Below the pieces are notes generated by a model. That model saw only the letters and a program-made list of their open reading frames with translations, did not search any database and was not told where the DNA came from. DNA of 60,276 nt, filler included, from Stramenopiles sp. TOSAG23-6 (lineage: Eukaryota): assembly GCA_900128565.1 (NCBI GenBank). It is 12 parts of 12 records of this genome, joined end to end, with 100 filler letters (N's around TTAATTAATTAA, not from the genome) between each part and the next. Parts side by side here need not be neighbours in the genome. Positions count along the whole stretch, not along the records: positions 25,223 to 30,155 come from LT637012.1; 11 more parts are not named here. One strand, 5' to 3'. How positions within the stretch are numbered: position 1 is the first letter of the stretch; each line of letters opens with the position of its first letter. Positions 3,376-58,112 of the stretch are shown one piece after another. The position numbers and the translations under genes were made by a program.

Positions 3376-3474
3376 GTACGTTTTTATTTCAATTTCGAAT
3401 TCAAATTTTTTTTTTCGTATGAAATTTTGTACCTAACAATTATTTTTTTTTCGAAATATTTTTTTACAATATAC
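3376..3474 (+). other. Family intron, GT...AC
   Basis: GTACGT donor, GTACCTAAC, ends TTACAATATAC. Removal gives VN|PAFD. Confidence 0.6.
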
Positions 3475-3606
3475 CCAGCATTTGATTGTACACCGCATAA
3501 GTATATCACAGGTATTATTACAGAAGAAATGATTTTTTATCCACCATATGAATTAAGTCTTCGTCGCGCCTGTGACCTTGCAAAAGCAACAAGAAAACGA
3601 AAATGA
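3475..3606 (+). CDS. Terminal exon of MRI1/eIF2B-family protein (rest of gene absent)
   Basis: [17 protein letters not shown] matches the NPAFDVTP..ITGIITE C-terminal motif of methylthioribose-1-phosphate isomerase. Confidence 0.7.
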
Positions 3607-5115: not shown

Positions 5116-6048
5116 GTGATAAATGTAAAAAATTGTGTCGTCCAGGTGTATGTTTTATTTTTTTTTTCAATTTTGAATTTAGTTTTTTTTTTTATAAAAA
5201 TTTTGTACCTAACGAATTTTACAGAAAAAAAATATTTTTTCACAAGATGTTTTATTTTTTTTTTCAATTTTGAATTTAGTTTTTTTTCGTACGAAATTTT
5301 GTACCTAACGAATTTTACAGAAAAAAAATATTTTTTCACAATACGTACACCAGTTCACCGTTGTTCTTTGTGTGACTATGATGTACGTTTTGACTACTGA
5401 AATTTCGTATACATTTCATTATTGATCCGCTATTTCTTAACAAAACGTTTGACCAATTTCAAATTTATAATGTTTTTCACGATACATATGTGTGGTAATT
5501 GTATAGCTAATCAATTCTCTATAGAAAAAAAATCTGATATTGATAAAAATGAATCACGAATACAAGCATTAATTCCGCCTATAAGACCTCCACCTACAAC
5601 TTTGTATCAATTATTTATTGCTAGTGCAATGCTCAATCAAAAAATATTCGCAAAAACAAAGACTGGATGTCTACATTCGGGTATATATGTTTTCATGATG
5701 AATTTCGAATTTTTTTTTTTTTTTAAATTTTCTTTTATACGAAATTTTCGTACCTAACAAAACAAAATTTTAAATATTTTTTTACTATTTAGGGTCTGTG
5801 TTACCTCTGATTATTCCTTCCGCGCTGTGCCTAACATAAACTNTGATAAAGAGTATGAAAAGGCTTTGAAAAGTCTTGCTCCAAATTGTAAATTGAGTAT
5901 TTGTGGAGTCAGAAAAAATGATCAAAAATTGTCATCAATATTTGATCAGGAAGTGTCAACTTTATCAAAATTTGATCACCCAGTAGACTATAATTTGAAT
6001 TCTTTTCTTAGGCTTTCATTGCGAAAAAGCTTCGGGTTTCTTGTGTAA
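5116..6048 (+). CDS. ZZ-type zinc-finger protein, 3' part; exons 5116-5147, 5347-5382, 5488-5680, 5793-6048
   Basis: Spliced product CDKCKKLCRPG|TPVHRCSLCDYD|MCGNC reconstructs a ZZ finger only after intron removal. Confidence 0.75.
5148..5346 (+). other. Family intron, GT...GT, with tandemly duplicated body
   Basis: GTATGT donor, two GTACCTAAC units, ends CACAATACGT. Joins RPG|TPVH in frame. Confidence 0.7.
5383..5487 (+). other. Diverged family intron, GT...AT
   Basis: GTACGT...CACGATACAT. Joins CDYD|MCGNC. Confidence 0.75.
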
Positions 6049-9900: not shown

Positions 9901-10189
9901 GTATGTTTTATTGTTTTTCAAATTCGAATTTATTTTTTTATAAAAATTTTGTACCTAACAAATTTAATTTTTTTTTTTTGAAATATTTTTCCAAAATACA
10001 TNNNNNNNNNNNNNNNNNNNNNNNNNNNNNNNNNNNNNNNNNNNNTTAATTAATTAANNNNNNNNNNNNNNNNNNNNNNNNNNNNNNNNNNNNNNNNNNN
10101 NGGAAAAATATTTCAAAAAAAAATCGTTAGGTACAAAATTTTTATAAAAAAAAAATATAGATAAAAAATTGAAAATAAATAAAATATAC

Positions 10190-12809
10190 ATATATAGTAG
10201 AGTTTCTGTATATAAATGTGAAAGTTCTTCTGGTGATGTTATTCGATCCGTGACTATAAAGTCAATATAATCTCCACCAAAAGATGCAGGAAAACCCATG
10301 TAATTGCATTGAAACGTCGCAGGTTTCATAGCAAAAATTTCATTTCGATTACCAAAAGTATACCCATTTAAATTGATAAGAATATCTATATTATCGTTTT
10401 TAATTTCTTGTGCAGCTTTTTGATAACTCAAATGTCCAATATACACGAAATGATGAAGACTTTTTTCAATTTGACGCCTCCATCTACTTTCATCACTTTT
10501 CGTTAAAGCATAACAAAATATTTCAAATTTAGTTTTATCATGATATGCAAATAAATTCACAGTCAAATGTGCGAGTGGATGATCAGCAAAGTCAGACGAA
10601 ATATAACCGATACGCCAACGTCGTTCTTTTGATGTTGTTGTACTAACAGAATTTTTACTTACAATTCGATTGGATGTTTCATTGTCTTTACACGTATCAT
10701 TTAATATTTCAATTCGATTGGATGTTTCATTGTCTTTACTCTTATCATTTAATATTTCATTGTCATTAACATTACCTATCGCACAAGCATCAACATGTGC
10801 CCGCTTTGCATACAAATTTGCAATTTCAAGTCTTAATTCCGGTGTGAAGTCTAATGAGAGTGAAAGATGTGGATTGATAGTTGGAGTCTCTCCGTTTAAT
10901 ATTGATTTTTTAGTTACTTCTAAAACCCTCGGCATCAATAATTCTAGGGAAGTCCAGTCGCATATATGTTGGTATGAATTAGCTAAATTGGCGATACACA
11001 AACTGTGATTTGGATCTAGAAGAATGGCCTTCCTGCAGAACTTTATTGCACAATTAAAACGTTTCATATCGATGTATAATGATCCTAGATTAACGTAAGC
11101 ATTTATAAACTTGGGATTTAATTTTACCGCTTGTAGAAAAGAAAATTCCGCTTCCTGTATAAAACCTAAATCTCTCAACAATGTGCCTTTATTATTGTGC
11201 ACAAAGCCGTTATTTGGATCGATTTGTAAAGCACCGTCGTATGCCAACATACTATTTTTAAAATCTTTACGTTTTCTTAAAACATTACCTAGATTAACAA
11301 ATCCACCTATAAAATTATGAATACGAATTACGTCACGAAATACAGTCTCCGCCTTTGCCAATTGATTTGTCGATGTAAGCAAATTGCCCAATTGCAACAT
11401 CGTACCCAAACGGTATGGTTCAATATCTAAGACACTTTCCAACATTAACTTTGCTTGTTGTACACATTTCATTTCGTGTAATAAATTAGCATATCTTTCT
11501 CTGACATAGATAAAATTTGGATAGATTTGAATGGCTAATTTAAACCATTTTTCTGCGCGTATATAAAATCCGAGGCTTCTTTGAATATTTGCAAGATTGC
11601 ATATCGTGTAAATAGTATCTTGAGTTGTCAGAGTTATTTGATTTGTAGAAGGTATTTTATCTATTATAATGTTATCTACATTATTTATTTGTGTTATCTG
11701 ATGTGTAGAAGGCATTTCATCTATATTATTTATTTTGGTTATCTGATTGATAGAAGGCATATTATCCATATTATGTCCTTGTTTTTCGCGCATTCTTTTG
11801 GTATCATATTTGACATCTACATAGTTCTTATTTTCAATGATATTCTCATTTGTTTTAATTACTTCATCTAATGTAATTTTGAGTATTTCCTCGTAGATAT
11901 GTATTTTGGAAAAATATTTCAAAAAAAATATCGTTAGGTACAAAATTTCGTACTTTGAAAAAAAGTAAAACATATATGCATAGCCTGTATCTTTTCACCC
12001 GAGTCATTCAACGCATTACCTAGCATTCTCCAAATCTCAATATCGCTAGGGAGTACTGTGAAAAATATTTCAAAGAAAAATGATATGTTTTGTAAGGTAC
12101 GAAATTTCATACCAAAAAAAAATTGAAATTAGAATGTGCAACGTACAATAAGCTTATGAGCGACAGTAAAACATTTAACTGCAACATCTAAGTTTCTTTG
12201 TAGAGAAGCAATAATTCCGAGATTTTTCCAACTCAATGGCAACTCAGGAGAAAGTGATGTTGCAATTTCAAAATGATGTCGAGCCTTTGCAATTTCTTCA
12301 GTATTTGAGTATAAGACACCCAAATTGATGTGACATTTGACATTATTAGGATTTTCATTTATTGCTTGTAGATAAAGCATTTCTGCTTCCTCATAGGCAG
12401 CCTCAGACTCCAGTAACAAAGACGCAAGTTCACACATGGTATCAGTATCCTGTGGATTTATTTGGAGTGCACATCTGTATTTAACAATAGCTTCGTTAGG
12501 TCGGTCAAGTGATGTAAGAACATGACCAATATTGGAATATGCCAAGGCTCGTAAAGGCGTTGGATCATCCTCTCCTTGGAGTTTTATCGCAGTTTCGAAT
12601 AGTTTAAGTGACTCTGTATGTCGACCAAGTTTATAAACAATTGTGCCAAGTAAAAGCGCACTTTCTTCATTATGTTTAATGTTTTCTAAGTCAGACAGTG
12701 AGGCCTCATTCAGGATGTCAAATGCCTCTGTCACCTTTCCCTCGTAAAACTTTTTATGCGCGAGGCACAGCGCGGCAGCACTAAAGTGTCTGTCGCTGCG
12801 ACTTAACAT
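10190..12809 (-). CDS. OGT: O-GlcNAc transferase-like (TPR + GT41), 3' partial; exons 12809-12147, 12050-11976, 11898-10190
   Basis: Many TPRs, then RIGYISSDFADHPLAHL, IDILINLNGYT and EIFAMKPA..Q..YMGFPAS. Confidence 0.85.
11899..11975 (-). other. Family intron with ATATGT in place of GTATGT (AT...AT)
   Basis: Full internal consensus and CCAAAATACAT end. Joins MH|IYEE. Confidence 0.65.
12051..12146 (-). other. Family intron, GT...TC (acceptor uncertain by +/-3 nt)
   Basis: GTACGT...TTCACAGTACTC. Joins HKLI|PSDIE. The nearby CAG gives a frameshift and stop. Confidence 0.55.
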
Positions 12810-15236: not shown

Positions 15237-16354
15237 ATAGTAATTCTAGAATTCGAGATTTGGCAGCTAATGCAACGGCACCATAACCCCCCTTTCCCCC
15301 AAGGGCTTTCGCGGCATCTATTAAAATTGGATCTTGAACATCTGATTCTTGAAGGCTTAAAGTGTGTAGGAGAAAACTATGTAAAACAGAGGACCAAGTG
15401 AGTACATTGAGCATGTATTTTTGAAAAATATTTCAAAAAATCTAAAAAAAAATGTTAGGTACAAAATTTCGTACGAAAAATAATTTCGAAATTGAAAAAA
15501 AATAAAACATACATACTAGATAATTCAAAGAAACGACGTCGATATTTCTGTATTTCAGATTTTGTGTTACTTTTTAATATTATAGTCAATAATGTAATAT
15601 GAGCTTCGCGTATAAGTAGAGGCATTTTTGAAGAAGCTGAAACACCATTATCTTTTGATATTGAGGAGTTTACTAAGGCACCGATGAGTTGCTCTAATGA
15701 AAAAGGAACCATTCTTACCGCATCTCCAAAACGATAAAAGAATTGCCAAACCACCAGAAGTTCAGAACTAGTCTTTGAATCCTTTTGAAGCTCAGGTGTA
15801 AGTGTGAAGATACCATCTGGATTTGGCCAATCAGGTATATCAACACCACGGAGAAGTTCTTCTTTCTCATTTTGTTTGTCATCAATCGGAAAGCGTTTCA
15901 ACCATAGTTTATACGCTGCTGCCTCCTTCTTCTTCTTGAGACGTTCAGCTTTAGCCTTCTTGCGTCTTGCAATCACCTCACGTTTACGTTTCGCTTTGAG
16001 GGCCCTTTTCTTTGCCGCCAGAGCCTTGTTCTGAGTTTTTTTCTTTCGTTTTTTCAAACTCATTTTGCCTAATTTTTTTCCAAGCTGAGTCAGCTTGAAC
16101 GAAGCCCGAACCTTTTCAAAGATTTTTTTTGAAACACCAGCCTTGATTGCACGTCGAAGTGGTAGCTTACAAGCCGCAGATGTGACTCCACAATTTGCAA
16201 CAATCCATTTTTCAATGGCAATGACAGAAGAACCGTGTCTATCTTTTAAAGCTGCAATAGCCATTCTCGCCATTTCCAAATATGTCGCTTTCTTAGCTTT
16301 CGTTTTTTTTTCAGCAATCACTGAAGACATATTTCCCGAGGAGCTTTCAGCCAT
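15237..16354 (-). CDS. Linker histone H1/H5 globular domain + DDT-like domain chromatin protein, 3' partial; intron 15413-15512
   Basis: TYLEMARMAIAALKDRHGSSVIAIEKWI (H15). ELLVVWQFFYRFGD...FSLEQLI...LLIREAHITLL...MLNVLTW (DDT-like). Confidence 0.75.
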
Positions 16355-18320: not shown

Positions 18321-19440
18321 TCAAACACCAACTCCACGAATGTCATCAAATTCCGTTCCTTCATCATCAATTTGTTGATTATAACTACCATTACGAGTCT
18401 TAGGTTCAATTGATTCCAAGTCAATATTAACTGTACTAACATTTGGTGTCATTTCAACATCATTTTCAAGATCATCCATTCGACCTCTCGTGTTTCCACC
18501 ACTTCCTTGGAGAAGAGGGTAATAAGCGTAGCACATGTATTTTGGAAAAATATTTCAAAAAAAATCTAAAAAAATTGTTAGGTACAAAATGTAGTACGAA
18601 AACAAAAAAATTCGAAATTGAAAAAAAATAAAACATACATAAACCAGACATAAAAGTTACAAGATCCATAAAATGTTGTAAACTCAATTGCATAAATTAC
18701 CTCTGGTGCAAAAGCGCCAACGGCGATTCCAATAAGAGCAAGAAACATTGCAATAACTGAGATTCCAAATAGAAAAATAAATTGTGGTTTTGTTGCTCCA
18801 TTTCTCGTCGCCATCATTACTGCACGAATCACCAAGAAGAATGCATATAAAAAGTAAAAAGTGATAAACGTTTCGCAGAGGGCCTTTGCAAAACCAACAT
18901 GTTTTGTGAAAGATTTTTGTTTTTACAAAAAAAACCGTTAGGTACAAAATTTGGTACAATTTTGTTTTGAAAATGAATGATGAAAACGTACATGTTTAAA
19001 ATTTTCCATTGCATAAGATGTTGGGTCAGATTCGGTTTGCATACGAACAAACATAAATATTGTAATGTAAAGCAACCAAATGAATATGCATAAAACACCC
19101 TTTGGAAAATAGAAACAAAATCCTCTAGGATGTTCACGTTCGCTCCAGAACGACTCCTTCGAAATAATATCAAATACATGTATTGCGAAAAAATATTTCA
19201 AAAAACATTTCGTTAGGTACAAAATTTCGTATGAAAAAAAATGTATCTAAAAAATTCATTTTTGAAAACGTACACATAACCAAAACATGAGAAGAGATGC
19301 AAGGAATGTAGCTTCGGCTGTGATGTTCAAACCTATCCAAAACACTGCTGGAGAGTAGATTTCAATTACAAAAAAAGGGTCATTGAAGAATATCAGCAAT
19401 ACAGATAGACCTAAGATCCAACGCTGTTCATAAGACCAGT
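18321..19440 (-). CDS. TMEM181/Wntless-like membrane protein, 3' part; introns 19178-19273, 18899-18991, 18535-18638; one apparent frameshift near 18880
   Basis: WSYEQRWIL...FNDPFF, LLMFWLC|VFD, FYFPK, NFYVWFM|CYAYYP. Confidence 0.75.
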
Positions 19441-19543
19441 ATGTATTTTGGAAAAATATTTCAAAAAAAAATCTAAAAATATTTGTTAGGTACAAAATTT
19501 CGTACGAAAAAAAATTCGAATTTGAAAAAAAATAAAAACATAC

Positions 19544-25555: not shown

Positions 25556-28520
25556 TCAGTCAATTAGTTCATCTGACATTGGTGTAAATCTTTTGACCAA
25601 TTTTGTTGTATCTCTATCTCCCCCAGAAATACGTGACAATGACCACAAAAGGGGCCAAAAACTATTAGCAAGTACAACAAACAATGATACACTATCAGCT
25701 ATCACACTCAGCCATAATGCCATACCACGAAAGACAACAAGTAAAATCACGATAGCATTGATAGAAATTGCTAAACATATATTGAAAATAACAAGTTGCT
25801 GTGCTCGTTTGGCGACGATGATAGCCCCCGGTAAGTTACCTAAATCACCCTGCAGCACGGCACTAGCAGCATCAGCAGTTGTACGAGAACCAATTTCCTG
25901 TACTGCTATACCAATATCAGCATTAGCTAGTGCTATACAGTCATTCAAGCCATCGCCTATAAAAGCTACAACCTCGCCTAAATCTTTTCTCTCTTTTATC
26001 CAACGACCCTTTTCTTCTGGTAGTTGTCCTTGATAAACACCTAGCTCAAAATCAATTACAGAAGCGACAGAGTCAACAGCGGCACCCTTATCACCAGTAA
26101 GTAAAGCACACGAAATAAGTATTGTGAAAAAATATTTGAAAAACACTCCATTAGCATTAGGTACATAATTTCGTACAAGACAAAATGTAACTAAAAATTG
26201 AAACGAAAACGAACACCCGAAGCATTCAAATGCCTAAATGTTTCTACGGAATCTCCTCGAATTGTATCGCGAAGAAGAATCATACCAGCAACTATGTATT
26301 TTGGAAAAATATTTCAAAAAAAAGTAACTCCACATCGATCATGTCTCTTAAACTGTGTAAGTTGAGGTAACTCTCCAGCACCTGCAAATGAAACAACACA
26401 CCCTGTATAGCTAGACATTATTGAGCGAGCAAGCGGATGGTTATCTGCCGATTCAACTGTTGCTGCCCATCGGTGAACATCTTCAAACGTCCATCCACAA
26501 TTTAAATTTTTATCACTAGGCGGAGTAAATACTTTCATATCGATGACTTTAAACTCTCCATTCGTTATAGTACCTGTTTTGTCCACACCCACGGAAGTAA
26601 TCGAAGCCAGATTTGAAAGAGCTTCTGAAGATTTTACTAGCAATTTGTATCTTTTAGCGAGAATTGCAACAGAAGTTGCCCATACCATTGGTGCGGCACC
26701 TACAATAGCACATGGACAACCAGCTACAATGATTACAAGAAATTGAGTAAAATTGTGTTGATAGAGGGAGACAAAAATTGCTATGATTATTATAATAGGA
26801 GTGTACCTGTAATTTTCAGAAATTATTTCAAAAATTTGAAATTTGTTAGGTGCATAATTTGATACGAATAAATAAATAAATAAATTTGAAATGACTCATA
26901 CAAATTTGATACGAATAAATAAATAAATTTGAAATGAATCATACAAATTGATACGAATAAATAAATAAAAATAAATTTGAAATGAATCATAAAAACATAC
27001 CACGACGCAAACATATCTACGAGACTTTGAGTGTGAGACTTTGTGGATTGAATAGTCGCTACAAGGTCATTAATTTTGCTTCGGAAAGAATCTTTCACAA
27101 CTGCTTCTGCTTCGACGACGAGGAAACCAAATTGAACAACAGAACCTGATTGAACTCTACTCTGAAGTTTTTTATTCTTTGCAACCAAAAGTGGTTCCCC
27201 GGTAACGCGACTCTCATCAACTTGTGCTGATCCTTTAACAACTAAACCATCACAAGGAATGGATTTTGGGAAAATATGACAAAAACAAAATTCTTTTGTT
27301 AGGTACAAAACTGTCGACGAAAAAAAAAAAAAAAAAAATCCATGATGAAAATCTACATCTCCTCTCCTACTCTAATGATAATTTTCATTCCTTTCTGAAC
27401 TTTATGGATTTTGGGAAAATATTTCAAACATTAAAATCGTTAGGTACAAAATTTCGTACGAAAAAAAATCGAATTTGAAAAAAAATAACATCGATCATCC
27501 GATTTTTGCCTTTTTCCAAATCTTCACTCATAATTGTCACTTTTCGTGTTTTTTGAGTTGTCATGTATTTTGGAAAATTAAAAATACAACAATTTGTTAG
27601 ATTAGCTACGAAAGTTCGTCAGAATAAATAAATAAATTTAAAATTAAAGTCCACAACGTACATGTATTTTGGAAAAATATTTCAAAAAAAAATCGTTACG
27701 TACAAAATTTCGTACGAAAAATAATTTCGAAATTGAAAGAAAATAAAACGTACATAGTCTTCAACCTTTTACTCACAGTAGCAAAAACAGCCATTTTTAT
27801 ATCATCCATAGTAGTAACAATCAAAGCAACCATAGCCGCAGACATTAGTTCACCTTGGGCAACGGAACCAAAAATTGCTGTTACCATTAATACATCAGCA
27901 TTAATTTGATATAGTAGAAGAGCTGAGAGTGCTCTCTGGTAGACTTTATAGCTTAGTATCAGGACAATGAGATAAAAGCCTAAAGCAATTGTGGCGAGTA
28001 TAGCACCACTAGTATCATAGCTAGTTGCGTTATCATGAGACATAAGGAAGACATAGTCAAGAGAACGAAGTGAACTGATGTCACATGGAAAAGGGCAAAA
28101 TGTTGAAAATCGTTGAATAGTAATAGCTGTTGAAAATAAAATGAATTGTGCAAATAATGGTAAATGGTCACATGTGTTGGATTCCGAAGAATTGTCAACT
28201 GTGTCACCAGATTCTCTTAATGATGCTCCAAGGAACTTTGTATTGAGCTTATCGACCAGCATTAATGGCTTGACGTCCTCGGTATGTGTAATAAACACAA
28301 GTCGGTCCATGACGCTTGCTGCGATATTTCTAATACCGTCAAAATCTGAAAGTAATTGCTTCACCATCTTTACTTCCCCGTTACAACACATTGAATCAAC
28401 TCGTAAGCACGTCTCAACCAAACTTGTTGATTCTTTTGTATTGTTTTTAGGCAAAAGAGGGGAGATCTCACTTAAAGGAATTTTCTTCATTTCCGAGTTA
28501 TACAAGATTGCTAGGTTCAA
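25556..28520 (-). CDS. P1B heavy-metal (Zn/Cd-type) ATPase; introns 27662-27753, 27563-27661, 27404-27489, 27259-27356, 26807-27000, remnant ending 26294, 26117-26214
   Basis: HMA MCCNGE, GEEIPCDG, VDESRVTGE, GCPCA, DKTGT, HPLA, LLTGD, GDGLND. Confidence 0.9.
26117..26214 (-). other. Family intron, GT...TT
   Basis: GTTCGT...GTACCTAAT...TTCACAATACTT. Joins NASG|ISCALLTGD. Confidence 0.65.
26807..27000 (-). other. Family intron, GT...AG, with internal ~42-bp tandem repeats
   Basis: Joins FASW|YTP. Confidence 0.85.
27563..27753 (-). other. Two abutting GT...AT introns (27662-27753 and 27563-27661) with no exon between them
   Basis: Junction reads CCAAAATACAT|GTACGTTG. Removing both gives LKT-M-TTQK. 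Confidence 0.75.
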
Positions 28521-28849: not shown

Positions 28850-30103
28850 TCATCGCAAAGCTTCTAAAATCTTTTCAGGAGTGATTACACCATGTGCAAC
28901 AAATGAGGGTACAAAACGACCTTGTGCGAGTTGTCTATTTCCACCACCCACTACAACCTTTGCAATTTTCTTTTCTTTTCCACTTTTTGAAGAAATATGC
29001 TTTTTGCTAGGGTTGTGTTTTTTTTGTACCTTTACTTCTGCCCTTATACCTGCAGAGAGATTTTTTTCTAAAGATTTAAAGATATTACCTGCATGCTCAC
29101 CAGAATTTTTACTATCTTCACCACAGGCAACACAAAGGTAGTCCTTGCACATAAGAATATGAGTAACATTATCACTAGCATGGCGATTAAGAAGTACTTC
29201 GCCCCGCCGACGCAAAGATGAAGCACCAAGTGTGTCTGGTACATGTATTTTGGAAAAATATTTGAAAAAAAAAAAACTAAAATTTGTTAGGTACAAAATT
29301 TTGTACGAAAAAAAAATCGAATTTGAAACAAAATAAAACATACATGATGGATCCATATAGGTGTTCCTTTTGATGTTACACCTTTAGCTAATGGATCTGA
29401 TGGAGCTGATGCGCAAAATTCTCGAATAGTTTTGACTTGGGTTTTGCAATCATTCAGACTAGCTTGTAACTTTTTTACTCGCCCCAAAGCTTCATTTGGT
29501 TCAACTTTAAGAGTATTTGAAATATCTAATAATTCATCATGTTGTTGTTGTAACCAAGCAACTGCCGCACGACCAGCTACAGCTTCTATGTATTTTGGAA
29601 AAATATTTAAAAAAAAATCTAAAAAAATAGTTAGGTACGAAATTGCGTACGAAAAAAAATCGAATTTGAAAAAAAAATAAAACATACATGCGTCTTGTTC
29701 CAACAGCTACTGAAGAATCACGAATTACTTTGATTGGATAAGTTTTGTCTGTAGTTGACACATGTGTACCTCCACACAATTCTCTAGAATAAACACTATT
29801 ACTACTACTATCACCACCAATTTCAACAAGTCGAACTTCTTCTCCATACTTTTCTTCAAAATTTGCAATAGCACCAAGTTTTCTAGCATTATCAAGAGTA
29901 GTCAGAGAAGGATGAACAGTCATACCAGCAATTGCAGCAGCATTTGCCCTGGATTCCACAGCAGCAATCTCAGAATCAGACAATGCTGAAGTGTGTGTGA
30001 AATCAAATGTAAGTTTATTCGTAGCAACTTGAGAACCAGACTGAATTACATGAGTTCCCAATTCGTCGCGCAACGCACTGTGCAATATATGTGTTGCTGT
30101 ATG
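28850..30103 (-). CDS. alaS: Alanyl-tRNA synthetase (organellar-type), 3' part; introns 29588-29687 and 29243-29343
   Basis: HTATHILHSALR, LTFDFTH, FEEKYG, SRELCGGTHV, GTRRIEAVAG, GGGNRQLAQG. Confidence 0.92.
29588..29687 (-). other. Family intron, GT...AT
   Basis: Restores GTRR-I-EAV. Using the AG 2 nt downstream frameshifts. Confidence 0.9.
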
Positions 30104-33300: not shown

Positions 33301-34557
33301 ATTATTAATTAATTGATTTAAATTTGTCAATAATAAATCACGAAATTTTTTTCGGCATTCTAAATCAAAACCTATATTTGTATCCATATACTTCATGATT
33401 GTATCGCGTAGTGTAATACATTTATGTTTAAATGTTTCATTATTGTCCTGATTTGTTGTTGTGTTTGTAGAATTTTTTTTCCAATCTTTACAATTTTGAA
33501 TTTCTTCAAAATTTTGAATGGATGATAAAAATAATGTGTCACAATGTTTGATTTGTTCGTTACAAATTTCAGTAATTTTGTTGTTCCAAGACTGAAATGA
33601 CTCTGGTACAGTTACACCTGCTAAAACACATATTGGAAGAGGTGGTGAGGTTACAATTTTTGTATTTGATGTTGTATCAGAAAATATATTTTGAGAAATA
33701 TTTTGTAATGTCATTGTGCATGTATTGTGAAAAAATATATTTTTTTTTTCAGAATTTTTTTGTTAGGTACAAAATTTCGTACGAAAACCAAAAAAAAAAA
33801 TTTAGACAAAAAATTTGAAATTCGAAATTCGAAACGTACATGGACCAAATTGAGATAATTGTTTTCCAATTTGTGAATTTAATTCACCACCAATCTGAAC
33901 GTACGACAATAAACGTAAACATAAAACAAACATTTTACAATTGACAGATGATGTTCCACACACTTCACTACAATTTTGTGATGCCATTCGAGCAGCGTTA
34001 CTCATAGTTTGTTTAGGCAGTTTTGTGCGTGCAATGAAACTCATTAAAACTTTTGCATTAATTAGTTTTTTACCATGAGACAATTTTGAAAATAACGTTG
34101 TATAAAATTGATCATCCAAAGTAGTATTTGATACGGATAGTGTTGGTTGTGTTGGTTGTGTTGAGTGTATAGTTGATTTTGTATCAGGAACAACATTTGG
34201 TACAGATGATGTACTTTTGTTTTGTATGTTTTTTTGTGCATGAGGATTTTTTTGTGTGTTTTGTGTGTTTTGTATACTTTGTTTGTTACGTTGTAAACCA
34301 TTTGGAGTTCCATTATGTTTCATTGACTTGATAGGTTCCAAAGTCTTCTTTTTTTTGTTATACCAAAGCCAAATATTTGTGTTTGGATTCTTTGTATATA
34401 TTTGTTTTTGTGAGTTAAAATAATACTTTGTCTGAGCATTATACCACAAATTTGAATTTTTATCCCAAATAAAGTTTCCCTTTTTCTTATTAACATCGAG
34501 ATCTAAAGGTAATCCAGATGCTGAAACAGAAGGATACTTTGAAGGAGTTGATGACAT
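30306..34557 (-). CDS. OCRE-like / EH-like / long coiled-coil / PH-like protein, 3' partial; introns 33720-33839 and 31367-31527
   Basis: FIWDKNSNLWYNAQTKYYFNSQ (OCRE-like), long coiled coil, C-terminal ICWG...LFLDDIVSVHFG...CFTI (PH-like). Three ORFs joined in frame by GT...AT introns. Confidence 0.7.
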
Positions 34558-35632: not shown

Positions 35633-36701
35633 TTGGTCATAAAGGGAGGTTTACCAGCACATTGGTTTGTTGAAAAACCACCGAAAGATCACTATAATTG
35701 GAGACCAACTCAACTATGGGGTTGGAGGACTCTACTGGAGAATGCCGCAAAACGAAACGATTTGAAAATGACAAATAATATTATTATGAAGAAACCATTT
35801 GAAGATGTCCGTGAATTTCTCAATATGCGTTTAATGTTGAATAAAATCGCATCAAATGGCATGGTTGCTATGTGTGCACTTCTTATAAAAAAAGGAGGTG
35901 CATTAGTTGATGGTGTTAGGGATTCAGAGAATGATCCGAAATGGAGAAAATGTCAAGAACAAGCTGGAGACTCAGATGCACATAAAGGTGCTACACCACT
36001 ACATGTATGTTTTTTTTTTTTTTTTCAAATTTATTTTTTTTTCATACGAAATTTCGTACCTAACGAATTTAAAAAAATATTTTTTCACAGTACATGATGC
36101 TGTACGTGAATGTCATGGAGGTTGTGTGAAATTACTTCTTGCTCTTGGTGCAAATCCAAATTATAAAAATGGCCTAGACTTTGCCCCGATTCATATTGCC
36201 ATCGCACACAATCCCCCAAAGAAAAAGATATTAGGAATGCTTCTTTCATCTAATAAATTAGATATTAACCAACGCGACTCGGTTGGTATGACAGCGTTAG
36301 AGATTGCCAAAGTTTGTGCCTCAAACAATCCTGCATATGATGTATTTCCTGAAATGGTCCAAATGATTGAAAAAGGAAAAACAGGTAGTCTTATTTGTGC
36401 TCGTTGTGGTATTGATGATGGTTTACTTCAAAAAGGAATGCTTCGATGCACTTGTCGGGTTTTTTATTGTAGTAAAAAGTGCCAGCGAGATCACTGGAGG
36501 GAGCATAAGCAACTTCATAAAGAATTGATGAAAATTGAGGATGACAAGACAGAAAATAAAGAAAACACATGTAATATAGAGGCGCTATTCAGACTTTCAA
36601 AAACATGTAGTGTGCAAAGGCAAAGTGATATGACATATACAAGTAGTAATAAGAAGGACAACGATGATATCGATAGTGATGTTGATTTGTCAATAGATTA
36701 A
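35633..36701 (+). CDS. Ankyrin + MYND-finger protein; intron 36005-36095; true start uncertain (35281-35606 may belong to it)
   Basis: GATPLH|DAVRECHGGCVKLLL, then CARCG...CTCRVFYCSKKCQRDHWREHK. Confidence 0.8.
36005..36095 (+). other. Family intron, GT...AT
   Basis: Restores ankyrin TPLH|DA. The upstream CAG at 36090 gives a frameshift and stop. Confidence 0.88.
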
Positions 36702-39751: not shown

Positions 39752-39899
39752 CTAGCTGATCCAGGCTCCTTGTTTTCTACCCAATCCAGGTTCCTTGTGA
39801 TCACCTAGCCTACTTAAATACAAATAAACATCCGTGCCAAAACCTTCTGATGATACCAAATCTAATTCTCCGCCAAAATATCTACAATAGACACGTGAT
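39752..39899 (-). CDS. Pyruvate dehydrogenase kinase family, terminal exon
   Basis: SRVYCRYFGGELDLVSSEGFGTDVYLYLSRLGD matches the PDK/BCKDK C-terminus. Confidence 0.85.
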
Positions 39900-40007
39900 A
39901 TGGATTATGAAAAAATATTTCAAAAAAAAAAAAACTTAAATTTGTTAGGTACAAAATTTTTATAAAAAAAAATCGATTTTTTTGTTAAAAAAAAAAATAA
40001 AACATAC

Positions 40008-40452: not shown

Positions 40453-41210
40453 ATGTCAAATGGATTATTGCAAAGTGTGGAAAAACAACCAGCTAACATT
40501 CCACCCGTGAAAGATTCCAAGAGTGTCAGATTTCGTGTTGGATATTCACCTAGTAGGAGAACGCGATACTCTGACATCGCCATGTATTGTAAAAAAAAAA
40601 AAGTAGACAAATAAAAAAAAAATATTAGGTACAAAATTTCGTATGAAAACCAAAAAAAAAAAATAAATTTGAAATTCATGATGAAAACGTACATAAATCG
40701 TAGTCCTTGATTACTTGACTGTTTACAAATAGTCGCTCCAACTCCTTTATAAATTCCAGATATTCCTTCTCGTTTCACTATATTTATGGTCCCACGTATA
40801 ATTCCTGAATTACCATCAATAAGCCGAGTTTTTAGTGTTTCTACAGGAGTCACCGCAAAGACGGCTTCAAGAGCACCGGCGCACATTCCTGCCATTAAAG
40901 TTCTTGTTGTACTCCCTTTGGCTTCAAATAATTCTGAAATACTCGCAAAAGCTCCAAATCTAATACCAGCTTTGGGTAAACTACCCGCTAAAACAGGAGC
41001 CATCCCTCTATAAAACGTAAGAGGACCATATGTACGTAAAGTGTATGCGAAACATGAAGGAACTCCCGTAAAATTCGGTTGAACTACTTTATTTGACAAC
41101 TGAAGTTGTGTTTTGATAAACTCCATTGGCCAAACACAAACAGTTTCAATAGCACCGGCCGTACAACCTGCCAATGTAGCGACAACTTTATTTTTGGATT
41201 TCTTCACCAT
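40453..41210 (-). CDS. SLC25A1: Mitochondrial tricarboxylate (citrate) carrier, 3' partial; intron 40582-40692
   Basis: WPMEFIKTQLQL, GSLPKAGIRF, TPVETLKT, KQSSNQGLRF-M-AMSEY. Confidence 0.88.
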
Positions 41211-41515: not shown

Positions 41516-44500
41516 AATGGCTACACGTGCTTTACTAAGAGGTGCCAAGGGTAATACTTCAAGAAAATCGACAAAGAAGTCTTCATCGCGTGGCAAAAGC
41601 TTTAAACTTCGTGGTGTCCGGAGTACAAGTTTTATGGATTCCCCGGTGGATGCTGACTCTACTAGCACTGCAGTCACTGATGAAGATGGCCCAACACTAT
41701 TAAGACGAATACGTCGTGATATTAATTGTGTTACAGATCCATCACGTGCTACACGTCTTCGTGCTCTAAAAAAATTACACTCTGAGCTTATTAGTATACC
41801 AATTCGTCCACCAAAAGGATCATTACTTTATATTTTTGAAGAAGCGTTATTTCCTACGTTATTACATGCTTTGAGGGACAACTCTGAAAGTTGTCGTGAA
41901 ATGGCACTCACCATCATAACATACTTTGCTAAGAATATTACCGACGATAAAAGTAATATATTAATTGCTTTTATTCCACTACTTGTAGAACGAGTAGGTT
42001 CATCTCCATTTGTTGAACAATCCGAGGAGCTACGCTTACAACTGCTCTCACTTACTCGTGTTATAATATCTCATTCTTCCGTTTCAGATGGTAAAGTTAC
42101 AGAAGAGTTAGAATCTCTTGTAGTAATACTCTCTAGAATCTTATTAGATCCGTTTGCTGATGTAAAAAAAGAGGCACTAGAAATTATTTTAGTACGTTTT
42201 TTTTTTTAATTTCAAATTATACCTTTTTTTTTAATTGTTTTGGAATATTTTGTAAGAAAAACTAACAAATGGTACATTTGACATTATTCCTTCACAATGC
42301 ATATTCTTACAAGTTCAAAATCAAGTGCTTCAGCATTACACCTACACTTGGAAACATTGGTGAATCCAATACTTGTTAATTGTGAACATCAACATTCTGC
42401 TGTACGACGTGTATGTTTTTTTTTTTTGTTTTTTTTCGTACGAAATGTTGTACCTAACCAAATTTTTTTTTTTTTTTTTTTTTAAATATTTTCCAAAAAT
42501 ACAGTTAGCTTTACGGTCGTTAGGTAAAGTCAGTTCATGTGGGGGAGAAAGTCTATTCAAAATTATGGATGAGAACATCATTCCGATATTAAAAAAAATG
42601 AGATTTGATCATACGGTATCAGTACGTTGTACGGTAGCATCAATTGTTTGTGATTGGCTGTATCAACTACCTGGTCAATATCGTTTTGAATCCAAATTAG
42701 TTCCAATCATTCTTGCATTTATCGGTGATTCATCTCCAGAAGTGTCTATACTAGCAAAAGATTCATTGTCTGCAGCAACAAGAGTATTATATGAATTACA
42801 TATTAAAAATGAAAATGTTGGTCGAGGAAGGAGTCATACAAATCGAGATATGGATGATAATGTTGTAATGACGGATTGTACAGACAATGAGGATGGATTA
42901 GACAAACCTGCTTCGGAGTGTATCCCCACGAATGACGTCATTTCAACACCACAAGAATCTGTACAAAATAGTATGAATGATAATGATGTGTTATCAAATG
43001 ATACAAATCATCATTTACTCAAAAATTTGTCAGATATTTTACCTCTACCGTTTACTGAAAGGCCAGATGTATGTTTTTCATTCTTTTATTATTTCGTGTT
43101 TTTTTTTTTAAATTTTTTTTTAAAATTTTTTTTAAATTTTTTTAAAATTTTTTTAAATTTTTTTTTTGAGTATTTGTTCAAATATACCGTATTGTTCAAA
43201 TATTGTATTACCCATATACATTTTTCTTACAATTCAAGTTTTTAACCCTAACCCTCCACCAAAAATCAAAAAATAAAAAAAATTCAAGTTTTTAACCCTA
43301 ACCCTAATTGTATCCTATTGTTTATATCATATGGATTGACACGTGTTTTTATTAATCGATTGGCTCCTACAATTTTACCTGTGATATTTCAAGATATATC
43401 GAATTGGACATCTCAAATTCGAATTTGTGGTGTTTCACAATTAAGATCATTTTTAGTGTATAATGAAGAACATAGTACTGCACAGCTTGACCAAATTTTA
43501 GAGACGTTACGATCAGCCTCACTTGATGACGAAGGTGAAATTGCATGTATTTTTTTTTTTTTTTGAAATTTTTTTTTTTTGAAATTTTTTTTTTGAAATT
43601 TTTTTTTTGAAATTTTTTTTTTATAGGAAATTTTGTACCTAACAATTTTTTTTTAGATTTTTTAAATATTTTTCCAAAATATATCACTTGTAATGAATTG
43701 TGCAAAAATTTTTGGATATTTTGTTAATGTTGATGCTATATTACGTATAGTATTACCTTGGGCTTTGGGAGAGAATGGATTAACATCATCACGACAACGT
43801 TGTGGTGCTTTAGCTTGTACGTGTACACAACAACTTGAATTTCGAATTTATTTTTTTCAAAATTTTTTTTAAAATTTTTTTCAAAATTTTTTTTAAAATT
43901 TTTCAAAAATTTTTTTAAAATTATTTTTTCACAAATTGAAATGTATTGAAATATTTTCACATCGTATAGTACTCTCTGCAATTTTTGATGGTGTCGTAGA
44001 TTCTGTGACAAATCATCAATTGAAAATTACAGCTGAGACATTATTTAATCCAATTATATGTGCCAGTGAGGATTCTGAGGTCCATTGTTGGTTACTTGTT
44101 TTAGTTGATTCTTTATTGAAAGCATCATCAGTTCAAAAAATACAAAAAATACAAAAAATACAAAAAATACAAAAAATAGAAACTGAAAGCCTTCTTACAA
44201 AAGAGACAGTACCATCAGTAAGTGTAAGTGATGAACATAGTATTGTTACATCTGATATTCAATTTGCGTTGTTACGTGTATTATGTACGTTTTTATTATG
44301 ATTTTTTTTTTAATATTTTTATTTTATTTTTTCGTAGTTAATTTTGTACCTAACAAATTTTCAAAATTTTTTTGAAATATTTTTCCAAAAATACAGTACA
44401 ATTACGCGCAAATAATGTTAATGTCGATATACAACTTGATGCATTGACGAAAGCTTCGTCATATGAAAAACAATCTGCATTATTTTCGATTCATTTTATG

Positions 44501-45133
44501 CTACTTTTGCAAGAAGCTTCAAATCAACACGAAATATGGCAAAATAATTCACCTGGAAAATTATTATTTGACGCATTACTTCGATGTGCAGGCCCTGTTG
44601 TTGGTTTACATATTAGTCATGTATGTCTTTCATCTTGAACTTTTTTTCAAAATTTTTTTCAAATTTTTTTTCAAAATTTTTTCAAATTTTTTTTCAAATT
44701 TTTTTTCAAATTTTTTTTNCAANTTTTTTTCAATGATTTTTGTACCTAACAAAAAAAAATAAATCTTTCAATTATTTTCTCAAAATACATGTGTTAACAA
44801 TCTTTGTTGTTGTATTAGAACCATCCAAACCTGCGGATCTAAGATTGTCTTTATTAGCATTACTTGAAGTTTTGTTATCAGACGCAAATGTATGTTTTTT
44901 TTTTTTTTCAAATTCAAATTCAAATTTTTTTTTTTTTTTTTTGTTTCATACGAAATTTTGTACCTAACAAATTTTTTAAGATTTTTTTTTTAAATATTTT
45001 TCCAAAATACATGTAAATGCGGCTCTACGTCCTCATGCTCCTGCGATAGCTGAACATATTTTACTCCCTAATGCCACGTGGCGTGTTGGACGTGTGGAAG
45101 CAACAATACGTAAATTATCAATTGCTTGTCTAT
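41516..45133 (+). CDS. DNAAF5: Dynein axonemal assembly factor 5 (HEATR2)-like, 3' partial; introns 42192-42302, 42411-42504, 43069-43332, 43547-43684, 43817-43969, 44285-44396, 44621-44790, 44890-45012
   Basis: D.SESCRE.A, EQSEELRLQLL, LDPFADVK, HQHSAVR, ILLPNATWRVGRVEATIR. Continuous frame after removing the introns. Confidence 0.85.
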
Positions 45134-45752: not shown

Positions 45753-47899
45753 AATACTTGATGAATGCCTCCCCACACTGACGAGGTGACAGCGATGAAT
45801 GCAAAACAGTGGTTTCCAATTGATACTTCGTTAGATATTTATTCAGTAGCGAAATCATTTGGCAATCTAAAGACTTGTACACATAAACTGAAGGATGATG
45901 TACGAGTGAAAGAACGGACATTTTGGAACGTTAAACTTTGTAAGTTTGTTAGCCCGAGTAGATTTAAAGTTATCATTGAATATGATAGACAGAGATATCT
46001 CGAACTTAAACTGAAAGAAAAGAAATCGCAGTGGATTCTTGTAGACATAAAAGTTAACTGTGCTTATCCAATAGTTGGTGTAATACATGAACAGAATCTC
46101 AGTAGTTCTACAGTTAAACATTCAGATACTACAATATACTCCGCTGCTGGAATACCAAAGAATACATCAGCTAATAATATCTTTGCAAACAGCAACGAAA
46201 ACCACCTCAAAGGTGGAAACTCTTTTCTTTTAGATAAGACAGTAGTCAACGATTTTCTAACCGTACATGAAGAAGAAACTCTAAGGAAAGTATTTGTAAA
46301 AGTCGCAAATAACGCCAACAACAAGTCTTATATCCACGAAACAGAACTCAAAATTCCAGCTACAGATATTGGTACCGTTTTCGACATTTCAGAAGTTGAA
46401 CTGCAAGATGCCGAAAGAGTATGCTAAAGTTATTTTGTCGGGTTAGATTAGAAAGTAAATCTGGTTCTTTTCACATGACTGTCAAAGAGTTAATAGAGGT
46501 ATTTAACTCGCACGATGAGGATTTAACTGGTAGATTAAATTCTAAACAAATACATAAAGTATTAGAAATGCTTCAACTAATAAGTAGCAGTGATGAAATT
46601 CAGGAAATATTGAAAGTGATGAATATAGAAAATGAAGATGAAATTTGTTTTGAGGAATTTATGACTTTATGTAATACACTATATAGAAAACGAGGAGGGA
46701 GTATTGTTGCAAATAAATCTAGTCATTGTTCATTTTTGCAAACGAGAAGTATGGTTGAAAATATTCGCTCAAAAGTTGAACGTCACTCTCTTTTGATATC
46801 GAATTTACAAAATGAATTATATAATTATGACGAGCAAATATCGGTGATGAATACTATTGAACAACATTCTGCTGTACAAACAGCAATAAGGCATTCTGAA
46901 AACGAACATAAGGAAATGATTGAACTAAGGAATCAAATGATTTCTGAACATGTATGTTTTATTTTTTTTCAAATTCCAATTTGTTTTTAGTACGAAAATT
47001 TGTACCTAATAACAAAATGTTTGTAATATTTTTCTAAAATACATGTTTGTAGAGATTTGAAGCAAATTCATGGAAAAGAAACTCATGATATAAACATGAA
47101 GATTTCATTTGTAAAAGATCAGACGAAAGCCGCAGAGAAAGACGTTGTGTTTGCAGAAAATGCTTATAAAAGTAATTATGCTGTAGCTGTCAAAGAAGTG
47201 AAACAAATTCAACAGTCTCTAGAAGATATTGAAAAGTTTACAATAGATACTGTTGAAGCAATTGAACAAGACAAAACACGTAGTGATCAATTAGGTAGAC
47301 TTGGAAAACAGCGTTTTTCTTTATATCGCGAAGGTCGAGTCGGTACAACATATAATCCTACTGTGTACAATTCCGCTGATGCAATACAAACATTTCTAAA
47401 GTCGAAAACATCTGCATTAGAAGATTGGCTACTATCTCGAACTAAATTTTCCAAAGAGGATAGAGAACGATATTTACTTCGTGTAAAGGAGGCGACAGGC
47501 TGCGGAGAGGAATTTGAGGAGAATATAGAAATACTAAATAGTCAATTACAGACTCTTGCTAAAACCCTCGATGATAAAAAGTCTTCGGTAGAGGAAGAAG
47601 AAATTAGAAATGTGTCACTAAAACAAAATCTTTTGAAAATTAAACAGAAGGAATATGATGAAGCTGAAGCTCAAGATCTTTCCCGAAGAATAAGTACAAT
47701 TCAAGACAAAATTACTTCAGTGCAAAAAGAAAGGATGGAATTGATGCGAACTATTATACCAAAGGAACACCAAATACATCTTAATAGGAAACAAGTAAAT
47801 TTACTTCAGATTGAATTAGGTGAACTTAAGGTTATCATGGATTCACTTTTTCCACATGATGATGTTATAAAACGCAGTAGCAAATCACAAATAAATTAA
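45753..47899 (+). CDS. EF-hand + coiled-coil protein; apparent frameshift near 46420; intron 46952-47044
   Basis: DEDLTGRLN and NIENEDEICFEEF EF loops. ISEH|VCRDLKQ joined by a GT...AT intron. Confidence 0.65.
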
Positions 47900-56534: not shown

Positions 56535-58112
56535 CTATTNACTAATCTTTTCTAAAGCTTCTTTAACTGATTTCACTGAACTCATTTTAGTTTTATGAGT
56601 ATCCATTAAATTAGAAATACGTTTTGTATTTGATTCAGAATATCCAGCTTTTTTCAAAATAGTAGCAGCATCTTTCACTTTCATTTTCTCCATTTTTTTT
56701 CCAGTCACAAAAATGACAGATTCTGGATGAGGACATAAATTTGGCATGTTTGACTTTTTCAAATATGATGTAGAAGAAATTAAATTTACATCCCCTTTCG
56801 TTTTAGATGTACCTTTTTCAATATGACTACTCCAAGCACGTGCTACACCAGAGTCTGTCCATATAGCATGATGTTTAGCATACACATTTTCATTGTTGAT
56901 GATTTCATTTGACTTTGAGTCATTGAATGTAAACAATAAAATAGATTTTTTAGATTTTGTTAAAAATACAAAACACGAAATCGGTGCTGTTGGTACAAAA
57001 GAAATGTTTTCGATTTTATCCACTGTGCCATACGAAGTTCATGTATTGGTGAAAATATATTTACGTTTGAACGTTTTGTTAGGTATAAAAACTCATAGAT
57101 TTTTTTTAGAAAAAAAAAGAATGAAAATCATTAGGGTTAGGGTTATAAACATACCTGCACAATCCATTTGATCCAAACGCCATCGTGGTACAGCTTCAGG
57201 TCTAGTATCAAGAGAATAAGCATCTACTTCTTCTTGTGATAGTTGTGTGAATTTTTCATCTCTCCAAGGACCAGATCGTCCAGTTTTTTCTGTATACGCT
57301 TCACGTGCGTCATTGATTGTTTCTGCTGCCACTGCAATTTGAGCTTGTAAAGCAGTCACTGAGACATCACCTGAAACAACAATACGACATGTGTGAACTA
57401 ACTCATCATGAACACGATGATCAATTGCTTTCGAAATAGCAATAAACGATTGATCAGTCATTTTTGAAGTGTGGTATATAGTTATTGGATGTGGCTCTTT
57501 TGGTGCCCTTGTGGGTACAGCACACAAAATTTTCTGGGCAGCAGCTACAAAAGTAGGCGTGTCCGATATTATACGAGTACGTAATTCAGCACTTCTATGA
57601 GACCCTATAGATGCGTCATGAACAAACACATCAGTCACGTTAGATAAGTGGTCCGTCACCGAGTCATATACAGTAGCAAAATCACCTGATAAATCTGATG
57701 GCAACACATTTTTTTTTGATTCAATTGATACAGTGCCATTTTTTTCCACAGATAAACCATGGTTTTGTAGTTTACGGATACTCAAGTTACGATATGCGTT
57801 TGACATTGGTGAAACATCATCAGTACATAAAGACCAGTTTAAAGCGTAGTTACGCCCTGGACCTTCGCGTGGAAACGACATGACATCCGCATCAAAGTCT
57901 GGAGTACCCCAAAGTGGATCGGTCTTGCCACTTGACAAAGGTGGTGGTAACGATGTGGCGTCTCCAAACACTTCACCGTTTCTGTGACGCATCAGTGGGC
58001 GTCCTGCTTTATCTACGTCTCCTTCAGCCAATGCACAGAATGACCTGACGCCTCTAGCAAATACATAACGAGATGCCTTTACAGTTGAAGCTCTAAGCAA
58101 TGTTGTGACCAT
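56535..58112 (-). CDS. Mitochondrial-targeted, degenerate PEPCK(ATP)-like protein; intron 57041-57154
   Basis: Arg/Ser-rich presequence. DVFVHDASIGSHRSAELRTRIISD resembles the PEPCK N-domain; no Walker A seen. Confidence 0.55.
57041..57154 (-). other. Family intron, CAG|GT...AT
   Basis: Joins DCA-G-TSYG. A 2-nt upstream register would create TGA. Confidence 0.85.

Follow-up and report, generated by a model that had tools for sequence, protein, structure and literature searches.

A high-copy family of short introns with mostly AT acceptors, probably spread by copying, in contigs of Stramenopiles sp. TOSAG23-6

Results

An intron family with predominantly non-AG ends

We analysed a 60,276-nt stretch of the Stramenopiles sp. 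TOSAG23-6 assembly (GCA_900128565.1), hereafter the window, and find that its genes are interrupted by many copies of one family of short introns, most of which begin with GT and end with AT. In 29 complete copies the donor dinucleotide is GT in 28 cases and AT in one, and the terminal dinucleotide is AT in 22, AG in four, and GT, TT and TC in one each. That this is a real non-AG intron family is, in our view, very probable, and the explanation we favour with fair confidence is an introner-like, copy-propagated, high-copy family of short U2-type introns with a non-canonical acceptor.

The window comprises about twelve unplaced contigs, ordered by decreasing size from 4950 to 4918 bases and joined by 11 linkers (44 N, TTAATTAATTAA, 44 N; positions 4952-55365), and none of its features may be read across a linker. 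It is AT-rich (33% G+C), and parts of it are contained in poly(A) seawater metatranscriptomes of four studies. A hidden Markov model (HMM) of the family, built on 25 of 31 aligned copies, was searched against the 59,302 non-N bases and gave 54 matches at E ≤ 0.01, 40 at E ≤ 1e-5 and 31 at E ≤ 1e-8, showing that the stereotyped intron architecture described in an initial annotation of the window recurs beyond chance. The 40 matches at E ≤ 1e-5 amount to many similar introns in unrelated genes, a feature of introners; their hosts encode AlaRS, a metal ATPase, a Wntless-like protein, an OGT-like protein, CPT2, a mitochondrial carrier, an ankyrin protein and others, and within genes there is about one copy per 1.2-1.5 kb. 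HMM matches span 7.3% of the non-N bases, whereas 10 of the 22 contig ends beside linkers fall within a copy; the assembly was broken by the family repeat. In RNA run X4, copies have word depths of thousands (maximum 8346 per bin), as against about 1-15 in most exon-only bins, a depth that is not a copy number, yet marks the family words as very abundant. A scan of the window against Rfam returned no match, and a literature search returned no description of this intron family, although supplements and Henriet 2019 might contain one.

The 29 complete copies were fixed by their coordinates, with the tandem pair at 27753-27563 counted as one, and are 77-199 nt long (median 103). Counts of sequence blocks use 31 copies with expectations from shuffles, and the hairpin alignment holds 37 copies, 28 of them distinct.

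Architecture of the family

In all copies a GTAYGT donor is followed by a T-rich tract, by TTTTGTACCTAAC as an extended branch motif and by a conserved 3' block, GAAATATTTTTCCAAAATAC, whose end is ..CCAAAATAC and two further nucleotides. The branch block is present in 23 of 31 copies (0.01 expected) and the 3' block in 24; the 5' arm motif CGTACGAAA occurs in 13 (0.07 expected) and TTCGA in 11 (2.2 expected). The branch point is presumably the A of CTAAC, judging by the motif, which places it 32-47 nt from the intron end in the 29 complete copies. Together with the last AT of the exon, the intron ends form the 6-nt inverted repeat ATGTAT...ATACAT noted earlier, and both ends pair in RNA folding; whole introns fold weakly (z between -2.7 and +0.3 across five copies), with pairing mainly in the terminal 6-7 bases.

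The blocks are well illustrated by the 100-nt intron of the AlaRS gene, in which all those listed initially are there. Along the minus strand (29687 to 29588) it carries GTATGTTTT, a T-run, CAAATTCGA, a T-run, CGTACGCAATTTCGTACCTAAC, TATTTTTTTAG, a T-run and AAATATTTTTCCAAAATACAT, with the variant CGTACGCAA in place of the family consensus CGTACGAAA. Its excision fuses ..VGTRR to IEAVAG.. in frame and corresponds to the sole stop-free length class; the exon upstream matches Pfam tRNA_SAD. An RNA contig of another locus (run X3) stops resembling the window exactly at 29588. For both AlaRS introns, the RNA contigs placed there gave no exon cover and the junctions were not seen in RNA, and searches of solved structures with the two AlaRS exons found no structure bridging the junction. 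An argument from an RRIEA motif at this junction was not confirmed by these structure searches. In-frame translation of the intron remaining after the internal AG was also considered and dropped, since its 31 nt shift the frame.

The initial annotation had further proposed a hairpin abutting CTAAC, to be judged by covariation. Its six pairs are formed in 72.3% of cases, as compared with 72.8% after shuffling; a compensatory change turns up in a single cell, and 296 of 500 shuffles score at least as high for covariation. All the changes fall in the 5' arm, the 3' arm being held constant as a part of TTTTGTACCTAAC. As judged from the aligned copies, a functional hairpin as proposed is refuted by this criterion. 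The suggestion that the conserved motifs are splicing signals therefore fails for the hairpin, while donor, branch block and 3' block, which persist in diverged copies, likely are such signals.

Acceptor position is independent of AG

RNA evidence comes from one contig (4.9 kb) compared with four runs, X1, X3 and X4 among them; 957 RNA contigs of run X4 were placed on it, of which 446 are at least 99% alike. In contigs of X1 and X4, runs that belong to two studies, a joint at 26116/26215 (1-nt ambiguity) with sides of 78 and 81 nt leaves out 26117-26214, giving a GT..TT intron. RNA contigs of all four runs skip 26807-27000 through a joint at 26803/26998 (cut +3), giving GT..AG.

For the other copies the reading frame was used. 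We joined 90 nt from each side and took a copy as informative if exactly one length class was stop-free, which was the case for 19 of 29 copies. Seventeen of them fit an end 2 nt past the ..ATAC-like tail (binomial p=6e-7 against 1/3), and these 17 ends are AT in 13 cases, AG in two, and TT and TC in one each. Thus, excision starts at the G of GT and ends two bases past ..ATAC, whichever bases these are, and therefore the acceptor is set by context or distance and not by AG. An AG that is passed over lies between branch motif and intron end in 14 of 29 copies, mostly 10-13 nt from the branch A, which may be too near for use.

The CPT2 gene allows a comparison with homologues. A model with the non-AG acceptor outscores one using the first AG past the branch motif in 6/6 homologues and is ungapped against the homologue of the choanoflagellate Didymoeca, whereas the AG model requires a 13-residue insertion. 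The public gene model of CPT2 (P0001) takes this first AG, 3 nt past the branch motif, as acceptor and translates 13 intron codons, the spurious residues being KNHFFLKYFFIMY. For many genes of the assembly, annotation bound to GT-AG is likely to be in error.

These data also bear on the idea that the repeats are assembly errors or untranscribed insertions. The assembly is fragmented, and part of an exon present in RNA contigs is absent from it at 26296-26322; yet two copies are skipped in RNA contigs, removal of 17 of the 19 informative copies restores the frame, and a conserved protein aligns exactly across the site of one copy, so that we regard an artefact as highly improbable.

Alternatively, the boundaries of most copies might lie 2 nt upstream at both ends, making them AT...AC introns (/ATGTATGT...ATAC/AT, slashes marking the cuts). 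Where AT stands on both sides, as in 19 copies, this gives an identical message, to which frames and RNA are blind; moreover, the copy at 11975 starts with ATATGT, and an ..ATAC end suits that at 19543. Against this, the donors agree on a perfect GTAYGT whose register is that of GT, a cut after ATAC at 26214 is excluded by the RNA message, ..GGGT+ATTT, and the shifted reading of the copy at 57154 yields a stop codon. U12-type introns have the donor [AG]TATCCTT and the branch motif TCCTTAAC 10-15 nt from the end, and neither motif was seen in the aligned copies, where the donor is GTAYGTTTT and CTAAC lies 32-47 nt from the end; a U12-type AT-AC identity was rejected. Altogether, AT...AC boundaries appear improbable.

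Apart from the two joints described, a third one was noted at 27405/27488 in run X4, with a side of 22 nt and two unmatched letters; run X1 has a loose end there, and contigs of both runs hold 6 letters beyond those expected from the genome. The extra letters at 27404-27489 may reflect a 6-nt exon polymorphism or unusual cut sites and are not counted as evidence. Short-sided X4 joints between different copies were rejected as cross-matches of the repeat. At 26294-26323 RNA contigs of three runs depart from the assembly at 26295 and 26323, each carrying 53-102 nt of other letters, and of the family copy there the assembly retains no more than the final ~30 nt. The loss near 26296-26322 of part of an exon and the bulk of an intron reflects either a deletion allele or a repeat-induced assembly error.

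Copies are probably related by descent

The family is self-similar over more than short splice signals, as expected for the repeated intron family claimed initially. The 5' type (GTAYGTTTTC.. or GTATGTTTTATTTT) is linked to the 3' type (..CACAAT or ..CCAAAAT) with counts of 21, 4, 1 and 5 (Fisher p=0.004, for classes picked post hoc, after the data had been seen), and these linked subfamily variants sit about 90 nt apart. Distances between copies in the 5' half correlate with those in the 3' half (Mantel r=0.30, reached by 164 of 5000 permutations). TTCGA and the 5' arm have no known splicing role and are absent from the RNA-verified spliced copies at 26214 and 27000. Because non-signal blocks are common, variants ~90 nt apart are linked and copies occur in tandem, we infer that the copies descend from one another in an introner-like manner, and spread by copying is likely.

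Could these instead be ordinary old introns that converged, without copying, under a long species-wide splicing code? Consistent with this, donor, branch block and 3' block are what survives in the most diverged copies (57154, 42192, 12146 and 7411-7468), spacers between blocks vary in length, and even the closest copies are not near-identical. A code alone, however, does not account for non-splicing blocks at fixed places that spliced copies can do without, for linkage over ~90 nt, for tandem and fused copies, or for the contig ends inside copies; we therefore consider convergence without copying quite unlikely and retain descent by copying.

A possible 2-bp duplication at the insertion site

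The last 2 nt of the upstream exon equal the last 2 nt of the intron in 20 of 29 complete copies, confirming the fraction of two-thirds given in the initial annotation; the shuffle mean is 15.5, and 63 of 20,000 shuffles reach 20. The flank consensus, YAT/R with the slash at the donor junction, is self-complementary (-3 C/T in 19, -2 A in 22, -1 T in 25 and +1 G/A in 22 of the 29 copies), in agreement with the earlier remark that the proto-splice site has shifted, the context being YAT/G and not AG/G. All three copies ending in neither AT nor AG have a non-AT exon end (GT/GT, GT/TT and TT/TC). The third-last intron base is independent of the exon, as five of the six copies with exon TAT have intron CAT, and any duplication is therefore one of 2 bp. 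A 2-bp target-site duplication of AT is plausible, being compatible with these data, and insertion at YAT/R sites with duplication of AT is the best-supported candidate for the mechanism of spread. That the vehicle was a DNA transposon making such a duplication seems possible, if doubtful.

Two individual cases cited for the duplication fared differently. The GT/GT match at 5148 is confined to the fused double copy 5148-5346. The AC/AC match at 3376 could not be upheld: its flanks are not clearly coding, no 3' end is stop-free, the AC end is among those excluded, and the AG at 3477-3478 fits no worse than other ends.

A different route would be spread via RNA, by reverse splicing at junction-like sites, reverse transcription and recombination, or another route free of duplication, the terminal AT then belonging to the intron. 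In line with this, copy boundaries are exact intron boundaries, all clearly genic copies are in sense orientation, and the third-last C belongs to the element. Yet sense-only survival is expected under any model, as antisense copies in exons cannot be spliced, whatever the route of mobility. The RNA route moreover predicts neither the GT/GT case and the self-complementary YAT/R flank nor the association of a non-AT exon end with a non-AT end of the intron (19, 1, 3 and 6; Fisher p=0.001, two coordinates having been revised later). We give the duplication-free routes only a small chance of being correct and keep insertion at YAT/R with duplication of AT as the leading candidate.

Several observations weigh against the explanation we favour. 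Regarding the acceptor, two of the 19 informative copies break the rule of an end 2 nt past the tail (19543, -2 or +1; 40007, +2, ..CCATAT), and a single non-AG junction was seen directly in RNA, the others being placed by frames and one homologue comparison. Regarding copying, the closest pairs of copies are 12-20% different (gaps counted), the mean pairwise difference is about 40%, and nothing in the window looks freshly inserted by its sequence. A family 22-mer had no match (0) in public JGI metagenome contigs, and a 17-mer hit 64 loci there with no convincing copy and five weak partial profile matches (best E=1e-4). The earlier idea that non-autonomous DNA transposons became introns, with the duplication supplying the acceptor, is compatible with the data insofar as the dinucleotide equality exceeds shuffles, but the 20 matches consist of 19 AT/AT and a single GT/GT, and nine copies are mismatched (AC/AG, TA/AT, GT/AG, AT/AG, AG/AT, TG/AG, GT/TT, GT/AT and TT/TC), eight of them with a non-AT upstream dinucleotide and the RNA-verified GT/TT copy among them. 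At about 6 nt (ATGTAT/ATACAT), the terminal inverted repeat is very short, and GTAC donor variants are compensated at the 3' end in one of eight copies. No transposase domain was found among 30 open reading frames (ORFs) scanned against Pfam, nor was there an unambiguous intergenic copy in the window, the sole non-genic candidate being that at 3376, where a small plus-strand exon is possible. The mismatches, the shortness of the inverted repeat and the lack of a transposase among these ORFs also favour the RNA route.

Catalogue of copies and neighbouring features

The coordinates of the catalogued copies, and of the parts of the AlaRS intron, are given in Table 1.

Table 1. Positions in the window of intron-family copies and of blocks within the copy at 29588-29687
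Positions	Strand	Feature	Basis
3376..3478	+	copy between two minus-strand genes, AG at 3477-3478; candidate non-genic or antisense copy	HMM
5148..5346	+	two fused copies, exon GT before donor, intron end GT	sequence, flank table
7411-7468		further diverged copy, 3' block	
9901..10001	+	copy whose end is exactly the contig end	HMM
11899..11975	-	copy, start ATATGT, end AT	join scan, copy table
12051..12146	-	copy, O-GlcNAc-transferase-like gene, GT..TC, branch block GTACCTTAC	HMM, frame
15413..15512	-	copy, GT..AT	HMM, copy table
18535..18638	-	copy, GT..AT	HMM, copy table
18899..18991	-	copy	HMM; not among 19 frame-informative copies
19178..19273	-	copy	HMM; not among 19 frame-informative copies
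19441..19543	-	copy, Wntless-like gene, frame end -2 (..ATAC) or +1	frame test, Pfam match
26117..26214	-	copy, GT..TT, junction in RNA	RNA joint X1 + X4; frame fits
26807..27000	-	copy, GT..AG, junction in RNA	RNA joint, 4/4 runs
27259..27356	-	copy, GTAGAT..AT, metal-ATPase-like gene	join RVGEE/IPCDG; HMM
27404..27489	-	copy, GTTATT..AT	HMM; RNA joint weak, 6 extra letters
27563..27753	-	two copies head to tail (27753-27662, 27661-27563), exonless between	joint removal restores frame; HMM
29243..29343	-	copy, GT..AT, AlaRS gene	HMM; not among 19 frame-informative copies
29588..29687	-	100-nt intron of alanyl-tRNA synthetase gene, GT..AT, exon CAT before donor	sequence, frame
29679..29687	-	donor block GTATGTTTT	sequence, alignment
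29635..29650	-	proposed hairpin GTACGCAATTTCGTAC	no covariation; conservation confined to 3' arm
29630..29638	-	branch block GTACCTAAC, presumed branch A in CTAAC	columns invariant or at least 90% conserved, 37 copies
29619..29620	-	internal AG, 12 nt past presumed branch A, unused as acceptor	use adds 31 nt, shifts frame
29588..29608	-	3' block AAATATTTTTCCAAAATACAT, cut after final AT	alignment, frame
33720..33839	-	copy, GT..AT	HMM, copy table
36005..36095	+	copy, ankyrin-repeat gene, GT..AT	join scan, HMM
39898..40007	-	copy, frame end at ..CCATAT	frame test
40582..40692	-	copy, mitochondrial-carrier gene, GT..AT	HMM, copy table
42192..42302	+	diverged copy, GT..AT	copy table
42411..42504	+	copy, GT..AG	HMM, copy table
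43547..43684	+	copy, GTATTT..AT	HMM, copy table
44285..44396	+	copy, GT..AG	HMM, copy table
44621..44790	+	copy, expanded T/CAAA repeat, GT..AT	HMM
44890..45012	+	copy, GT..AT	HMM, copy table
46952..47044	+	copy, GT..AT	HMM, copy table
57041..57154	-	diverged copy, exon AG before GT, end AT	HMM, copy table
59969..60090	+	copy, carnitine palmitoyltransferase 2 gene, GT..(GT)AT	homologues 6/6, frame fits

Copies are clustered in some genes (18535-19543 and 26117-27753), the intervening exons of the Wntless-like gene being about 130-260 nt long. Several multi-kb ORFs are without any family copy, and the contig at 20189-25120 is as a whole one open, intron-free frame of 1644 codons with EF-hand pairs and near-identical internal repeats. 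The copy at 26807-27000 contains a ~46-nt unit three times in tandem, beginning at the second and third GTATGA-like sites. At 3282-3478, between two minus-strand genes, two family-like copies lie on opposite strands with both donors in a common palindrome, ACGTACGT (3374-3381); one of these two opposed copies may be non-genic or antisense.

A telomere-like 13-mer, AACCCTAACCCTA, occurs 10 times in the window (0 expected), at 30472-31258 (minus strand), 43294-43306, 57132-57144 (minus strand), 59816-59871 and 59984-59996. Its settings are Asn-Pro codons in an ORF, positions just within the 5' ends of two family introns, and an inverted pair. The latter, TTAA-CCCTAACCCTAG...CTAGGGTTAGGG-TTAA at 59813-59875, lies within the open CPT2 reading frame, and the public gene model excises 36 nt of it as a GT-AG intron. 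By its sequence it looks like a small TTAA-flanked inverted-repeat element, which could be coding, an intron or a mobile element.

Discussion

In the mechanism we propose, the copies carry their own signals, namely a yeast-like GTAYGT donor, the branch block TTTTGTACCTAAC, a U-rich tract and the 3' block GAAATATTTTTCCAAAATAC, and the acceptor is chosen by context or distance, 32-47 nt past the branch A. Spread might proceed by insertion at YAT/R sites with duplication of the central AT, and splicing of GT...AC plus AT would then restore the message exactly.

Which organism hosts the family affects how far this reaches, and the finding would be more notable if the host were not a tunicate. Domains encoded in the window include SH2, Costars, WASH CCDC53, DNAAF5, a Wntless-like transmembrane domain, a DCD domain of plant/protist type and TPR with GT41, the DCD and SH2 domains indicating differing lineages. 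The best named relative of CPT2 is from the choanoflagellate Didymoeca (44% identity), the named relatives in a cluster look-up being a choanoflagellate and fish only; a protein search with an ORF containing an MPN domain gave one match. In a quick maximum-likelihood tree of CPT2 with 24 rows, no tunicate sequence among them, the window protein groups with unnamed environmental proteins (SH-aLRT 99 and 98) beside a haptophyte clade (90) and apart from choanoflagellate (95), oomycete (100) and vertebrate (100) clades. The host may not be a tunicate; both the CPT2 tree and the DCD domain are more suggestive of a protist. We raise, as a tentative and rather unlikely scenario, that a protist unrelated to tunicates independently evolved both a spliceosome that ignores AG, cutting at a constant distance of two bases past the ..ATAC motif of the intron, and a mobile element with a 2-bp duplication that created most of its introns. 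If so, GT..AY ends, like those of group II introns, would be a repeatable outcome of introner invasion and not a tunicate oddity.

To our knowledge, the GT-AG rule is almost universal, with few large-scale exceptions, in Fritillaria, Amoebophrya, euglenids and diplonemids. The family described here is a compact and easily modelled case, with canonical donor and branch site and an AT acceptor in three of four copies, and it bears both on the spread of new introns and on the recognition of intron ends. It offers a system for asking how a 3' splice site is defined without AG, be it by a ruler from the branch site or 3' block or by an altered U2AF-like factor, U2AF being duplicated or altered in F. 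borealis, and it permits testing whether a 2-bp duplication supplies the acceptor. Gene predictors bound to AG mis-annotate such genes, as with the 13 spurious residues in CPT2, and introner surveys based on them would miss the family.

Introns with strict signals in intron-poor eukaryotes, as in yeasts and in Trichomonas and Giardia, where branch and acceptor motifs are fused, are few and end in AG. The family resembles them in its GTATGT donor, the CTAAC branch site and a conserved sequence from branch to acceptor; unlike them, its copies are dense, alike over their full length and mostly end in AT.

In the parasitic dinoflagellate Amoebophrya, more than 60% of introns are non-GT-AG, with repeated families and direct repeats of 3-5 nt at the boundaries (Farhat et al. 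2021, PMC7789003). Inverted repeats of 8-20 nt join the two ends of these elements in a hairpin relative to which the cut sites vary, the terminal dinucleotides are inconsistent, and the genome is rich in G+C and apparently lacks U1 (PMC7789003). A marine setting, repeated intron families and non-canonical ends are shared with the window, whereas its copies differ in a strongly canonical donor and a terminal stem of 6-7 bp in place of 8-20 nt repeats.

Introners of Micromonas and Aureococcus, and those of wider surveys, are canonical GT-AG introns with clear terminal inverted repeats, duplications of at least 3 bp and often near-identical copies (PMC11282704; Gozashti et al. 2025, PMC12130899). 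They and the family have in common similar introns in unrelated genes and splice signals borne by the element and, if the 2-bp duplication is real, the logic by which a duplicated target completes one splice site and excision is exact. The family departs from them in its mostly AT acceptor, a putative duplication of 2 bp, a terminal inverted repeat of ~6 nt and greater divergence among copies.

The closest published parallel is the non-canonical introns of the larvacean tunicates Fritillariidae, which Henriet et al. 2019 reportedly described, according to papers citing them. These are U2-type non-AG introns whose commonest 3' end is AT (44% in F. pellucida, 34% in F. borealis); a YAY triplet often stands before the donor and makes up the final three bases of nearly all introns, and AG/AC and AG/AT classes are dominant in F. 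borealis (Soo et al. 2026, PMC13326754). An origin from miniature inverted-repeat transposable elements with the duplicated target as acceptor has been proposed there (PMC13326754, PMC11282704). Like these introns, the copies in the window have non-AG ends with AT the commonest and keep a U-rich tract; YAY precedes the donor in 15 of 29 copies and forms the last 3 nt in 22 of 29, in line with that description. Unlike in F. borealis, where non-GT donors dominate, the donors are GT in 28 of 29 copies and yeast-like GTAYGT. The window further differs from Fritillariidae in that a single family of fixed architecture, with an extended branch block, makes up almost every intron seen. Its CPT2 falls with environmental proteins near a haptophyte clade and apart from vertebrates and choanoflagellates, in a tree without tunicates.

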